Shown: piece by piece, positions 19,386 through 25,651 of the stretch
Layout: each line of letters starts with the position of its first letter
How positions within the stretch are numbered: the stretch's first letter is position 1
Source: Candidatus Nealsonbacteria bacterium
GTDB taxonomy: Bacteria; Patescibacteriota; Minisyncoccia; Minisyncoccales; PWPS01
Length of the DNA stretch: 55,046 bases
Reading direction: 5' to 3'
NCBI GenBank assembly: GCA_003551845.1
Contig: PUNQ01000054.1
Location: forward strand, 1-55,046
Position numbers and translations under genes: made by a program
The notes under the pieces: model-generated
Database searches by the model: none
Told to the model about the DNA's origin: nothing
What the model saw: only the letters and a program-made list of their open reading frames with translations

Positions 19386-20357
19386 ATGTTTTTAAGATAC
19401 CAAAAACGAAAATTCATCCCGTTAGAGATAAAGAATGCACTTTATAATTATAAAAAAAAGTGCACTAAGAATCGCTTGGAGCGATTCCCGTCTCTAACGG
19501 GGTTTACGCTAATAGAATTACTAATTGTTGTCGGAATAATAGCGATTTTAGCAGCTGCGGTAGTGGTGGTCATAAATCCCGGCCGGCAATTCGCCTCCGC
19601 AAGGGATGCGACCAGAGAATCTCATATAAACAGCTTATACACTTCTCTTATATCTTACCAAGTAAGCCATCAGGGCGGATGGGATGAAATAGGCATGCCG
19701 CAAGAATTAACTGAGATTTGTAACACCAATTTGAATAATCCCGATTGTGAAGATTTGGTCAATCTTTCCACACTGGTTCCTGATTATATTAATCAAATTC
19801 CGGTTGATCCACAAGGCAGTGTAAGTGCGGTGCAGGATGGAACGGGATACTTTATTTCCGAAAGCAGCATTATTCTTGTCGCTGAAAATTGGGAAACCAG
19901 ATTTTTGGGAGTCGGTATGACGGAAGACCAATATGCGGAATATGTTGAAAATTTTAGTTGTGACGAATATGAAGGAGTTATTGTTTTTTATGGAGACCCG
20001 GTTTATTGTGATATGTCCGGAAATATTTGGACCCCGACTTTGGATTTGACTGCCGATGGTGGTAATTATCAGGACTACGATTGGAGTAGTGCTATTGACC
20101 AATGTGAAAATTTGGATTACGGGGGTAAAGATGATTGGGGGTTGCCCGGCCTTTCCGATCTGGAAGAGCTTTATGACGGGGCGGGATCGGAGCCGAGTTA
20201 CGATATTAATGCCCGGTCGGCGGGCTATTGGTCTTCCATGTCGGATATGATGGGAGGAGCATGGATGGTGGATTTTTCCAACGGAGAGTCGAGTGTAGAC
20301 GATGTAAGTGAGCACAACTTTATTCGTTGTGTTCTTGAGGAAGGGATTTCAATTTAA
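19386..20357 (+). CDS. Type IV pilin-like protein fused to a C-terminal DUF1566/Lcl-C-like domain
   Basis: G|FTLIELLIV N-methylation motif; WSSAIDQCENLDYGGKDDWGLP...EL, YWSS, AWMVDF, FIRCV. Confidence 0.8.
   Translation: MFLRYQKRKFIPLEIKNALYNYKKKCTKNRLERFPSLTGFTLIELLIVVGIIAILAAAVVVVINPGRQFASARDATRESHINSLYTSLISYQVSHQGGWDEIGMPQELTEICNTNLNNPDCEDLVNLSTLVPDYINQIPVDPQGSVSAVQDGTGYFISESSIILVAENWETRFLGVGMTEDQYAEYVENFSCDEYEGVIVFYGDPVYCDMSGNIWTPTLDLTADGGNYQDYDWSSAIDQCENLDYGGKDDWGLPGLSDLEELYDGAGSEPSYDINARSAGYWSSMSDMMGGAWMVDFSNGESSVDDVSEHNFIRCVLEEGISI
19416..19503. mobile_element. MITE/REP-like inverted-repeat element inside the pilin leader
   Basis: Terminal IRs atcccgttagaga / tctctaacggggt (1 mismatch) enclose the hairpins tgcacttt..aaagtgca and gaatcgct-tgg-agcgattc. 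Confidence 0.7.
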
Positions 20358-22556: not shown

Positions 22557-22567
22557 ATTTTTATTTG

Positions 22568-22640
22568 TGCCCTCGAGAGGACTCGAACCTCTATTGCAAG
22601 CTCCGCAAGCTTGTGTTTTATCCGGTTAAACTACGAGGGC
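22568..22640 (-). tRNA. tRNA-Arg(GCG)
   Basis: Reverse complement gccctcgtagtttaaccggataaaac-a-caagc tt GCG ga gcttg...ggttcgagtcctctcgagggca. Confidence 0.92.
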
Positions 22641-22770
22641 TTTTCACAATTCTAACATAAAAAATTATTTTTTCTAATAAAGACACTTTCTTCCGCTGTT
22701 TGAAATGATAATTTTTAACTTGAAAGAGGTTCGTAAGTTGGGAGAGGCCTGACCTCTCACAATTCGCCCC

Positions 22771-22876
22771 ATTTCCACGCACCAGGTGCGTGCATATTTA
22801 TCACACCCCGCTCCATTTTCACGCACCAGGTGCGTGCATATGGGCGTAAAGTAGCATTGACTTCCGATTACGGATT
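22771..22876. repeat. Left copy of a direct repeat carrying two CACGCACCAGGTGCGTG palindromes
   Basis: Palindromes at 22776-22792 and 22820-22836; the 64-bp core 22813-22876 matches 24385-24448 with 2 mismatches. Confidence 0.95.
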
Positions 22877-22996
22877 GTCGATTAAATCCACGGAAGTGGA
22901 TTTTCTATTTTTGCAAAGGGGGATTTATGATATAATTTTACAATACAGTCTTTTATTTAAATACAATTGACGTATTTTTCATAATCAAATACATAT

Positions 22997-24109
22997 ATGA
23001 GCAAATATAAAAATGGAGGTTTTACTCTCATAGAATTACTAATTGTCATAGGAATAATAGCGATACTCGCTTCCGCTATTATTGTAGTCATAAATCCCGG
23101 CCGGCAATTCGCCTCCGCAAGGGATGCGACAAGAAACAGTCACATAAACTCACTTTATAATTCACTTATTTCCTATCAAGTAGCCAATCGAGGAAATTGG
23201 GGTGAAATAGACCTACCTCAAGAACTTACCGAGATATGTAACAGCAATCTTGAATCTCCGGATTGTACCGGTTTAGTTGATCTATCCGATTTGGTAGACA
23301 ACGGTTATATAAATCAAATACCCTTAGATCCTCATGCCGAAGGTTACGGAACCGGTTACGAAGTAGCCGAGGCAAGCGTTATTTTAAGAGCTCCACTGGC
23401 TGAAACACGGTTTATAGGAATAGGAATTGTCGAGACCGAATATGCGGAAAACGGAAACGGTGGAGAATTTAATTGCGGAGATGACTTTACCGACAATAGA
23501 GATGGAAACATTTACGCAACTGTAGAAATAGGTGGCCAATGTTGGTTTACTGAGGATTTAAGGTATGAATGTGATAATTTTAATGATGTGGGTGAAGATG
23601 ATGCCACCAATTGGGATGGAGACGGTTGTGCCCCACAAGGAGATAATTATAATGGACTTCTGTATCAATGGGGTGCGGTAATGGATTGGGATGGTGAAGG
23701 AGATCCACCCGAGGAAGGATCGCAAGGAATTTGTCCCGACGGATGGATTGTTCCCACCGATGATGACTTTAAAGAATTGGAAATAGGGCTGGGAATGAGT
23801 CAGTCCGATGCAGACGGTACGGGATATAGAGGAGATCAGGAGGGAGATATGCTAAAATCCGATCCGGAGGTGGAAGATTGGTGTCACACATCTATGGATT
23901 GCGCAACTTCAGGATGGGAAGGATTACCTGGCGGTTACCGCCACAACCATGGCTACATCATCAATGTCGGTTCGAGTGGTCGCTGGTGGTTTTCTACTGA
24001 AGATGGTACTGGTGCCTGGGCCCGGCATCTTCACAGTACCTTCAGTGCAGTCAGCCGTCTCTCCACCGCCCAGAATTCCGGTCACTCCGTTCGCTGCCTC
24101 AAGAACTAA
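22997..24109 (+). CDS. Type IV pilin fused to a FISUMP (Fib_succ_major) domain; probable DGR target
   Basis: G|FTLIELLIV; DNRDGNIYATVEIGGQCWFTEDL, GLLYQW, QGICPDGWIVPTDDD, GHSVRCLKN. Confidence 0.88.
   Translation: MSKYKNGGFTLIELLIVIGIIAILASAIIVVINPGRQFASARDATRNSHINSLYNSLISYQVANRGNWGEIDLPQELTEICNSNLESPDCTGLVDLSDLVDNGYINQIPLDPHAEGYGTGYEVAEASVILRAPLAETRFIGIGIVETEYAENGNGGEFNCGDDFTDNRDGNIYATVEIGGQCWFTEDLRYECDNFNDVGEDDATNWDGDGCAPQGDNYNGLLYQWGAVMDWDGEGDPPEEGSQGICPDGWIVPTDDDFKELEIGLGMSQSDADGTGYRGDQEGDMLKSDPEVEDWCHTSMDCATSGWEGLPGGYRHNHGYIINVGSSGRWWFSTEDGTGAWARHLHSTFSAVSRLSTAQNSGHSVRCLKN
23930..24109 (+). other. Putative DGR variable region (VR)
   Basis: 50 of the last 59 codons end in C/T and only 2 end in A; abrupt switch to GGY Gly and CGN Arg codons. 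Confidence 0.7.
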
Positions 24110-24117
24110 TTGCACTC

Positions 24118-24251
24118 GATACCCTCTTTTGAGAGACCACGCCTCGAATCGTCCGGCGACGATTCGGGCCTTACGCTCTCGGCGTTTCATTTCCAACAAG
24201 GTCGGAAAACCATGCTGAAACGCCTGCGAGAGTCCTCTCAAAGAGGGTATC
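24118..24251. repeat. Structured inverted-repeat element directly 3' of the VR
   Basis: gataccctcttttgagag / ctctcaaagagggtatc outer IR; inner stems cgaatcgtc-cggc-gacgattcg and ggcgtttca...tgaaacgcc. Confidence 0.8.
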
Positions 24252-24279
24252 TTCGCTTAAAAGTTACGATCGCGAACTT

Positions 24280-24299
24280 CCTGCCTGCCGGCAGGCAGG
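24280..24299. repeat. Perfect 20-bp REP-like palindrome
   Basis: CCTGCCTGCCGGCAGGCAGG. Confidence 0.9.
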
Positions 24300-24341
24300 T
24301 TTCAACCCCAATCCCTCGCTTAAGGGAAAAAATAGACAAAT

Positions 24342-24448
24342 ATTTCACGCACCAGGTGCGTGCATACACTCCTACACTCCCACCCCATTTTCACGCACCA
24401 GGTGCGTGCATATAGGCGTAAAGTAGCATTGATTTCCGATTACGGATT
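24342..24448. repeat. Right copy of the direct repeat with two CACGCACCAGGTGCGTG palindromes
   Basis: Palindromes at 24346-24362 and 24392-24408; tail ggcgtaaagtagcattgaYttccgattacggatt shared with the left copy. Confidence 0.95.
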
Positions 24449-24524
24449 AAAGATTAATGATTGCGAAAACGTTTATTTTTCAAGTTGAAAATAATCGAAA
24501 TTATATTATACTTGAATTCAAGAA

Positions 24525-24611
24525 GGAGAGGTGCCGGAGCGGTCGAACGGGGCACCCTGCTAAGGTGTTGTGCCTTCACGGGTACCGAGGGTTCGAATCC
24601 CTCCCTCTCCG
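24525..24611 (+). tRNA. tRNA-Ser(GCT)
   Basis: ggagagg/cctctcc acceptor stem, gcacc ct GCT aa ggtgt, long variable arm, G discriminator. Confidence 0.95.
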
Positions 24612-24613
24612 CA

Positions 24614-25053
24614 TTGACAGTCAGTATTTATTTAAGTTAATTGTTTATGCTAATTGGGTTGGTGAGTGAAGTTGATTCGAACGGTTTTTCCCCGTGTTGA
24701 AAAACAGTCCAGTGCATATCCCGACATCATATTCTGAGCGACAGTACTTTGAATCAGTTTGCAGGAACGAGGATAAAAGTTTGTTATTTACAAACGATAG
24801 ACGAGTGACGACCAAAATGATCAAAGTACGGTCGTCCAAAAGAAAGCTTTTTAAAATTCATCTTCGGCGTTACTTCGTCAATCACGATAGCCTTCCGGCA
24901 TCGCTCAATCCTTGCGCCTTGAATCTGAATCTTAAAGAAGCTTCTCAGAATATGATTGATCGGGTATGACACTGGACGCTAAAAAACGTGGTTTTTTAGA
25001 GCCAGGGGGTCGGGGAAAAACAGGTGTTTATTTCGAATCCCTCCCTCTCCGCA
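24614..25053. mobile_element. Non-coding structured element ending in a duplicate of the tRNA-Ser(GCT) 3' end
   Basis: 22-bp ttcgaatccctccctctccgca at 24592-24613 and 25032-25053; long internal IR tccagtgcatatcccgacatcatattctgag / ctcagaatatgattgatcgggtatgacactgga. Confidence 0.75.
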
Positions 25054-25186: not shown

Positions 25187-25189
25187 CAT

Positions 25190-25651
25190 ATAAAGCAGAA
25201 TATTAAAAAATACAATTAATTGAGATGGATAGAGTTGACAAGCAGGATTCGAACTTTAGGGGAGTGAGATCCGAATCAAAGTCCATTCAGCGAGAATGAT
25301 GCAGGTTCATATTTTAGGCTCGAGGAGTAAAAGATATTGTTCAATATCTTGTCGACGAGAACGACAAAGATGGACATGCATCACTCGCCCGAAGGGAAGC
25401 ATTTAAATGTTCGTCTTCGTTGTCATTTCGTCGCTTACAATGTTTGCACATTGTTCACTCCTCATTCCTAAAATCCGAACATTTAAAAAGCTTCTGAATG
25501 GATTGGGGTTCGAATTCCCCTCCCCTATAAAAGGGGTCGGGAAAAATTAATGAATTTTTCCCGTGTTGGGAAAGACTAAAACCCGTGGGGTTTTAGGGGG
25601 CAAGCCGTCCGGTGGGCGGCGAAGCGACTTCGAATCCCACCCCCACCGCAT
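25190..25651. mobile_element. Non-coding structured element ending in a duplicate of the tRNA-Ser(TGA) 3' end
   Basis: 23-bp ttcgaatcccacccccaccgcat at 25167-25189 and 25629-25651; nested IRs. Confidence 0.75.

Follow-up and report, generated by a model that had tools for sequence, protein, structure and literature searches.

Does a pilin gene that lies between palindrome-bearing direct repeats travel as a unit, and if so, what moves it? The locus sits in an 864-kb Candidatus Nealsonbacteria genome of 71 contigs (G000), on the 55,046-nt contig C20, the whole of which was analysed and is called the window here. A preliminary description of the window saw an excisable, amplifiable or mobilisable cassette that could carry a hypermutable adhesin gene between loci or cells. 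We find that the palindrome belongs to the REP-type repeats and that the genome carries a RAYT-type gene cognate to it, a reading well supported by the copies and the gene described below, and that the REP hairpins are likely swap points for the gain and loss of accessory pilin genes.

The pilin gene and the repeats around it

The pilin locus lies between tRNA-Arg(GCG) (22567..22640, minus strand) and tRNA-Ser(GCT) (24525..24612, plus strand), the left and right resident flanks called by ARAGORN, in an inter-tRNA spacer of 1884 bp pieced together from repeats of at least five families. The 17-bp palindrome CACGCACCAGGTGCGTG occurs exactly at 22776, 22820, 24346 and 24392 of the window, followed by CATA in all four cases, where chance would give an expected 0.02 and four copies were reached in 0 of 100 shuffles. 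As first described, the copies form a doublet on each side of the gene, spaced 44 bp on the left and 46 bp on the right, and share a tail: the left 64-bp core (22813..22876, plus strand) consists of REP copy 2 (22820-22836) and a tail with GATTA heptamers, the right core (24385..24448, plus strand) of REP copy 4 (24392-24408) and its tail, and alignment confirmed that the two cores differ at two positions (22842/24414 and 22861/24433). The core repeat can be extended to 79 bp at 91% identity with a spacing of 1572, the longest exact stretch common to any two copies is 29 bp, and the spacers within the two doublets are clearly unlike each other when aligned. Copies 1 (22776..22792, plus strand) and 3 (24346..24362, plus strand) complete the doublets, copy 3 lacking the C-rich 5' flank of most copies. 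Judged by loop base and flanks, both doublets are direct and not inverted as a REPIN would be.

Further repeats crowd the spacer. The hairpin at 22740..22760, decayed and recognised by sequence, belongs to a second class of REPs (AGG-N5-CCT type) and matches G000:C23:27646-27670; palindromes like it flank RAYT genes in G007 and G006. The AAATCC-N-GGATTT hairpin at 22884..22903 (plus strand) is a terminator-like, dispersed small repeat with another copy at G000:C5:48742. Downstream lie a dispersed hairpin element of about 150 nt (24118..24251; fold z=-7.2), which is found genus-wide (copies in G000:C5 and G002-G008) and mostly away from pilins, and a CCTGCC-type palindrome (24280..24299), a dispersed repeat with three copies in the genome; an Rfam scan returned no match for the ~150-nt element and otherwise tRNA-related matches only. 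The 64-79-bp core is composite in its own right: G003 has one homologous copy, G003:C19:13323-13401 (76% over 79 bp), which sits before ruvA in a 3-kb locus without a pilin. The left core and its upstream flank differ from the right at four positions, and the right agrees with this outgroup copy where left and right differ; that the left carries the changed letter in 4 of 4 cases is a weak hint that fits an incoming copy arriving with the gene. Neighbour names used here (argS, murA, ruvA, galT-like, sodA-like) are ones we take from the translations, not family calls.

Five sequencing runs, X1-X5, were compared as assembled contigs, not raw reads, and mapped to the window at 88 and 94 likeness; X4 comes from another year and study, X5 from the same study as X4, and X1 may be the source sample, with X1-X3 possibly one campaign. 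Single X1 contigs traverse each repeat into unique flanks (22564-23116 and 24232-24552, 0 differences), so the repeat layout is not a mis-join or assembly artefact, and X2 and X3 also cover parts of the filled allele, at 0-1 differences. Elsewhere in the assembly, C9, C28 and further short contigs with a GC content of 48-68% are probable contamination, which takes in an LTR-type and a group II intron-type reverse transcriptase. Beyond the right flank, two non-coding stretches of ~440-460 bp (24613-25052 and 25188-25651) trail the two tRNA-Ser genes and each closes with a copy of the respective tRNA 3' end, much as a small integrated element would; G004:C5 has a stretch 90% identical to the first of them, and an X4 contig omits 24705-24978.

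The gene (22997..24109, plus strand) encodes 370 aa in which a type IV prepilin N-terminus is fused to a FISUMP (Fib_succ_major) domain (PF07963, PF09603; TIGR02532, TIGR02145). Its AT-rich leader (22918..22996, plus strand), shared with the pilin paralogs C5:46748 and C47:12921 by blastn and alignment, is promoter-like by consensus match only. The 3' end (23936..24109, plus strand) had been read as a DGR variable region (VR), and its codon signature agrees: C stands at the third position in 28 of the last 57 codons against 58 of 313 in the rest (p=4e-6), the third base is C or T in 48 of these 57 against 167 of 313 (p=8e-6), and for a 3' shift to C-ending codons the gene comes first of 464, with its C5 paralog second. 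The machinery that should accompany a VR did not come to light. No template repeat differing at adenines was found in the fragmentary assembly and the loci examined or in 400 other genomes of the order, and searches of the genome found no Avd-like gene (PF05635) and no DGR reverse transcriptase; its two reverse transcriptase matches, which we read as LTR-type and group II intron-type, sit on contigs whose GC content is 57% and 67% against about 40%. One of eight congeners has a reverse transcriptase match, inside a phage-like region, and six pattern matches to FISUMP in viral contigs yielded none that was confirmed. At the level of contigs, not raw reads, X1 shows 0 differences from the assembly over 23101-24190. 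In X2 the gene contig ends at 23987 and 23988-24089 lacks cover, which could be VR variation or a hole and is for that reason not taken as evidence. With template repeat, DGR reverse transcriptase and variants all not found, the term hypermutable is unsupported; a DGR likely shaped the 3' end, either formerly or from a locus that the assembly lacks, so that it would be a fossil or an unassembled, remote target. The accessible part of PMC5758913 treats Fib_succ_major as a known DGR target class and includes remote targets, and DGRs are described as common in CPR in the portions available of PMC8144416 and PMC11661182.

A second pilin in the window (19386-20357) is fused to Lcl_C and 74% alike over 270 nt at its 5' end; it has no VR-like codon shift and no REPs. 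At G000:C47:12921-13830 the contig breaks exactly where the VR-like part of a pilin-Lcl paralog would start, and several congener contigs also break off at a pilin gene or the ~150-nt element.

REP repeats, a candidate enzyme and other pilin genes

Genome-wide, the palindrome occurs in eight copies within one mismatch, against none for a reversed control: four at the pilin locus, two flanking a Y1 gene and two singlets between ordinary genes (C18:11330 and C68:9811). This number is low beside classical REPs, and the exact palindrome is present in 2 of 61 genomes searched. The Y1 gene (C68:3477-4148, palindromes at -55 and +5) encodes a RAYT-like transposase of 223 aa with intact motifs (HUH, as HFH at 92 with H92/H94, and YIHLNP with Y152), which matches PF01797 above cut-off, NF047646 (REP-associated tyrosine transposase; E=1e-20, 74.1 bits) just below the cut-off of 80, and E. 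coli TnpA-REP 4ER8 (E=4e-9); no HTH was detected in it. The eight dispersed copies and the cognate gene bear out the description of the palindrome as REP-like, and the search it recommended, for a RAYT flanked by the same palindrome, thus succeeded; its remark that no enzyme is encoded holds for the window and fails for the genome, since an intact RAYT-like Y1 gene flanked by the palindrome makes C68 the source of a candidate enzyme.

By its motifs, not by a tree, the C68 enzyme fits subclass 2.1 / RAYT group 1 / TIRYT as set out in 10.1101/279083, PMC3733652 and PMC5581495. The palindrome's flanks are C-rich or T-rich and carry no GTAG tag, and it is therefore not a group 2 or 3 REP and stands closer to subclass 2.1/TIRYT repeats. 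A relative of the enzyme in G002 (77.6% identity) has its own, different palindrome at identical offsets, with eight copies in G002, and two further Y1 genes in G000 adjoin their own palindromes (26 and 15 genomic copies). Of the 15 class-3 copies, 14 pair up as doublets at a distance of 49 bp, and in class-2 doublets the distance is 42-64 bp; as 42-64 bp is usual for these two other REP classes, the doublets at the pilin locus are unremarkable in spacing. Predicted hairpin energies of the four local copies, whose stem is shortened, are -7.4 to -11.8 kcal/mol versus -14.2 for a RAYT-flanking copy. The 5' C-run is missing from 7 of 34 class-1 and class-2 copies, in varied settings, and we gave up a missing C-rich flank as a general mark of right-hand REP copies once two such pairs proved to bracket resident genes. 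Public collections yielded no usable match to the palindrome: the 13 in genomes are titled Actinomycetota/Polyangia, three are viral, and seven in metagenomes were rejected as one identical, non-homologous locus.

Some arrangements of other REPs deserve mention. The orthologous intergenic site G000:C68:9811 / G002:C8:12865 bears each species' own RAYT-type palindrome, which suggests that REP sites may be rewritten to match the resident enzyme. At G000:C66:3537-5192, two class-3 doublets 1594 bp apart bracket a 431-aa gene that adjoins the doublets' own RAYT gene, the doublet-gene-doublet layout of the pilin locus in a different repeat class. A tRNA-Arg(CCT) lies between two class-2 REPs identical over 33 bp (G000:C5:30123-30343); in matching congeners this tRNA is on other contigs or far from ruvA.

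Genes of the pilin family are present at varied sites in eight of nine genus genomes, yet their link to REPs is weak. The best congener copy (58% protein identity; G002:C11:20001-21077) lies beside a galT-like gene and is followed by the same ~150-nt element; it has an in-frame TAG near the start and a VR-like 3' end that is kept. The C5 and C47 paralogs begin to align at the foot of a class-2 REP, whose 5' flank is abrupt in C5, and the equivalent spacer in G005, G006 and G008 lacks the C5 pilin. Before murA, where G000 carries just one REP and G002 a mosaic of repeats, G005 has a pilin gene. In a test confined to contigs below 46% GC and to genes more than 330 bp from a contig end, an upstream REP precedes 3 of 9 pilin genes against 17 of 178 long-spacer genes (p=0.058, not significant), and the three cases, being paralogs, are not independent. 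When 16 pilin loci were compared with themselves, a long bracketing repeat appeared only at the window pilin; three others had 30-52-bp matches and one was a tandem gene pair. REP pairs also bracket resident genes, such as C5:45563 and C65:10241. Mapped genome-wide with their cargo, as had been proposed, the palindromes accompany a gene at the pilin locus (four copies) and the RAYT gene (two) and stand without cargo at the two singlets. Related pilin genes occupy different loci in congeners; no near-identical copy of the unit was found at another site. Movement of the unit between cells is not supported.

An empty allele and how the unit may have been exchanged

In six congeners, the tRNA-Arg/tRNA-Ser spacer measures 84-156 bp, with no REP and the whole insert absent (G004, G005 and three loci of other genera without a measurable spacer stand outside this comparison). 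An X2 contig with the G003 spacer links 22640 to 24476, and an X2 contig has 62 unlike letters ahead of 24422. In X4, one 188-nt contig of depth 2.6 links 22775 to 24346 and skips 1570 bp, with 90 letters per side at 97-98% identity and 21 letters that fit both sides, so that an allele emptied of the predicted ~1.57 kb is present there. The unit absent from this allele (22776..24345, plus strand) comprises REP 1 or 3, the left spacer, REP 2, the tail, the hairpin, the promoter-like region, the gene and the downstream repeats. The empty allele, a ~265-bp REP mosaic, retains the left flank with its decayed hairpin, one palindrome, the right spacer, and copy 4 with its tail, the right core remaining at least to 24435. 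Because X4 joins 22775 to 24346, the exchange point is the 21 bp common to copies 1 and 3 (22776-22796 and 24346-24366); the break falls in the first palindrome of each doublet, and not in the 64-bp cores.

X4 contains the organism (444 bp of a neighbouring gene with 3 differences, depth 5.4) and no cover of the skipped gene at 94%, and its joint contig and X2 both have the variant 24380 C>A. The empty allele is a single contig in one of five runs and is not shown by X5. A circle junction was found neither in X1, X2, X4 and X5 nor among the joints listed for X1-X4, with the proviso that contigs lose rare variants and single-stranded circles escape; among the joints listed for the five runs, none joined back across the unit as a tandem or amplified copy would, and the only related copies in the genome are paralogs with 73-77% DNA identity over the 5' part. 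The circular and amplified forms once envisaged were thus not seen in the five runs compared.

Reportedly, Shyamala (1990) dealt with REP-like repeats as recombination points. The accessible text of PMC7661048 describes them as sites at which recombination gives rise to duplications. Given the citation of REPs as substrates of this kind, the weakened local hairpins and the failure to find a circle, we rank host repeat recombination first: that the 1570-bp unit was gained (loss being less likely) by recombination between two REP copies strikes us as an evenly balanced proposition. The direction of change is not fixed by the data, with gain likely favoured. The locus may have started as the short spacer between two tRNA promoters that congeners display and then passed through the ~265-bp REP mosaic seen in the one contig; crossing over between the first palindrome and a second REP doublet with tail, one that carried promoter, pilin gene and downstream repeats, would have left a doublet on each side. 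The RAYT would likely serve only to spread the repeats, and the exchange itself would be ordinary repeat recombination. Against plain homologous recombination, the 64-79-bp core pair (copies 2 and 4) would be expected in preference to the 21-bp pair observed. No donor locus for the pilin unit was found.

That choice of break and the paralog boundaries at REP feet are why catalysis by the RAYT is ranked second, as a possible account clearly behind host recombination. The enzyme would act on single-stranded DNA: it would nick the foot of the cognate hairpin, free a REP-to-REP circle with the pilin and paste this circle into another REP. IS200/IS605 transposases excise and paste in this way with their own ends. 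The break inside a palindrome and not in longer homology would suit such an event, as would the junction-like copy 3 without its C-rich 5' flank, the C5/C47 homology that starts at a REP foot beside an abrupt flank, the orthologous REP site with each species' own palindrome and the intact sequence of the cognate enzyme. The part of PMC8266576 available reports in vitro cleavage and strand transfer by TnpA-REP of groups 2 and 3, on the 5' or the 3' side of REPs, and REPIN excision was detected in reads according to the accessible portion of PMC3116915. However, that biochemistry concerns groups 2 and 3 and not the subclass of the C68 protein, whose palindrome has no GTAG tag; the four local stems are shortened, the lack of a 5' C-run recurs in varied settings among class-1 and class-2 copies, none of the runs and joints searched held a circle junction, and E. 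coli REP regions yielded no circles in the text available of 10.1101/2024.07.17.603846.

It is unlikely that no true exchange took place, with REPs accumulating around an unrelated arrival, local copying homogenising the cores, and the X4 contig being a library chimera or one-off slip. The mosaic spacer, the REP pairs around resident genes and a joint in one contig below depth 5 are what such a history might leave, but the joint matches over 90 letters per side, its 21 shared letters are probably too short for a false 31-mer graph join, X4 does hold the organism, and the 24380 variant recurs in X2. Least credible is a reading of the repeats as sites for an Xer-type recombinase or integron integrase, with the unit as an integron-like cassette: the assembly has two tyrosine recombinase genes (C12, C44) and the unit a single gene, but in partial-domain scans both proteins fit best as Xer-like and the integron model matched only their C-terminal 60-65 residues, neither contig carries the palindrome, which flanks the Y1 gene instead, no serine resolvase was found in the assembly, and the pilin unit, with its own promoter-like leader, shows neither an integron integrase nor attC sites nor the promoterless gene of an integron cassette.

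Comparison with known systems

Several described systems bear comparison with the locus. Like the REPtron (REP/REPIN/BIME plus RAYT), as characterised in the accessible parts of PMC5581495, PMC3116915 and PMC8266576, the genome has a single-copy Y1/HUH gene flanked by a recurring intergenic palindrome, often in doublets, and several RAYT classes each with its own repeat. Unlike the REPtron, the palindrome at the pilin locus has no GTAG and only eight copies, its doublets share one orientation, and the repeat occurs both with and without a 1.57-kb gene unit, a variation that those parts of the three sources do not describe for RAYTs. TnpA-Y1 subclass 2.1 / RAYT group 1 / TIRYT enzymes share the longer protein (223 aa here), the Y-x-x-x-NP motif, a serine motif past the tyrosine and flanking self-complementary repeats in small families (10.1101/279083 and PMC3733652, as far as their available text goes); the same text of 10.1101/279083 reports no nearby REP-like sequence and a C-terminal HTH, in contrast to C68, which has REPs and no detected HTH.

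As a target, the pilin resembles the CLec2 class of DGR targets (DUF1566 / Fib_succ_major; PMC5758913 in the part accessible) in its C-terminal Fib_succ_major domain and its pyrimidine-ending, A-poor 3' end, and the paralog with an Lcl/DUF1566-like end ranks second for the codon shift; it differs in that its genome has yielded no template repeat, DGR reverse transcriptase, Avd-like gene or variants. With IS200/IS605 elements and their non-autonomous derivatives the locus shares an HUH enzyme and same-orientation hairpins near both ends, whereas the pilin unit has no transposase, TnpB or second copy, and its empty allele keeps a full palindrome doublet. IS608, by contrast, is said to lose both ends precisely.

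The nearest published idea is that of the procA lanthipeptide genes and TnpA-REP in picocyanobacteria (10.1101/2020.03.09.984088), where an expanded, variable family is proposed to be shuffled with group-1 RAYTs; there the transposase genes adjoin the cargo, whereas here the link is the cognate palindrome and the empty allele, and in the available text of that source the authors saw no strong evidence for or against causation. No report of RAYT cargo movement, or of RAYT repeats in Patescibacteria, appeared in the literature searched, which included few subscription papers and no supplements. What the locus adds to knowledge of RAYTs and REPs is an empty allele with a cargo gene. The benefit of RAYT-REP systems for their hosts is described as an open question in the part available of 10.1101/2021.07.10.451892, and a cognate enzyme, a 17-bp hairpin and filled and empty adhesin alleles within one species make the idea of REPs as points of cargo entry directly testable. 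If the enzyme plays no part, the locus would be a clean case of repeat-mediated pilin turnover in Patescibacteria by an ordinary mechanism. We regard as doubtful, at this stage, the bolder proposal that domesticated Patescibacteria RAYTs mobilise entire pilin-adhesin genes, of which some have tips diversified by a DGR, by cutting them out at one cognate hairpin and pasting them in at another; if RAYTs do move cargo, host-dependent cells could reshuffle their attachment proteins, and RAYTs would gain a host-beneficial job.
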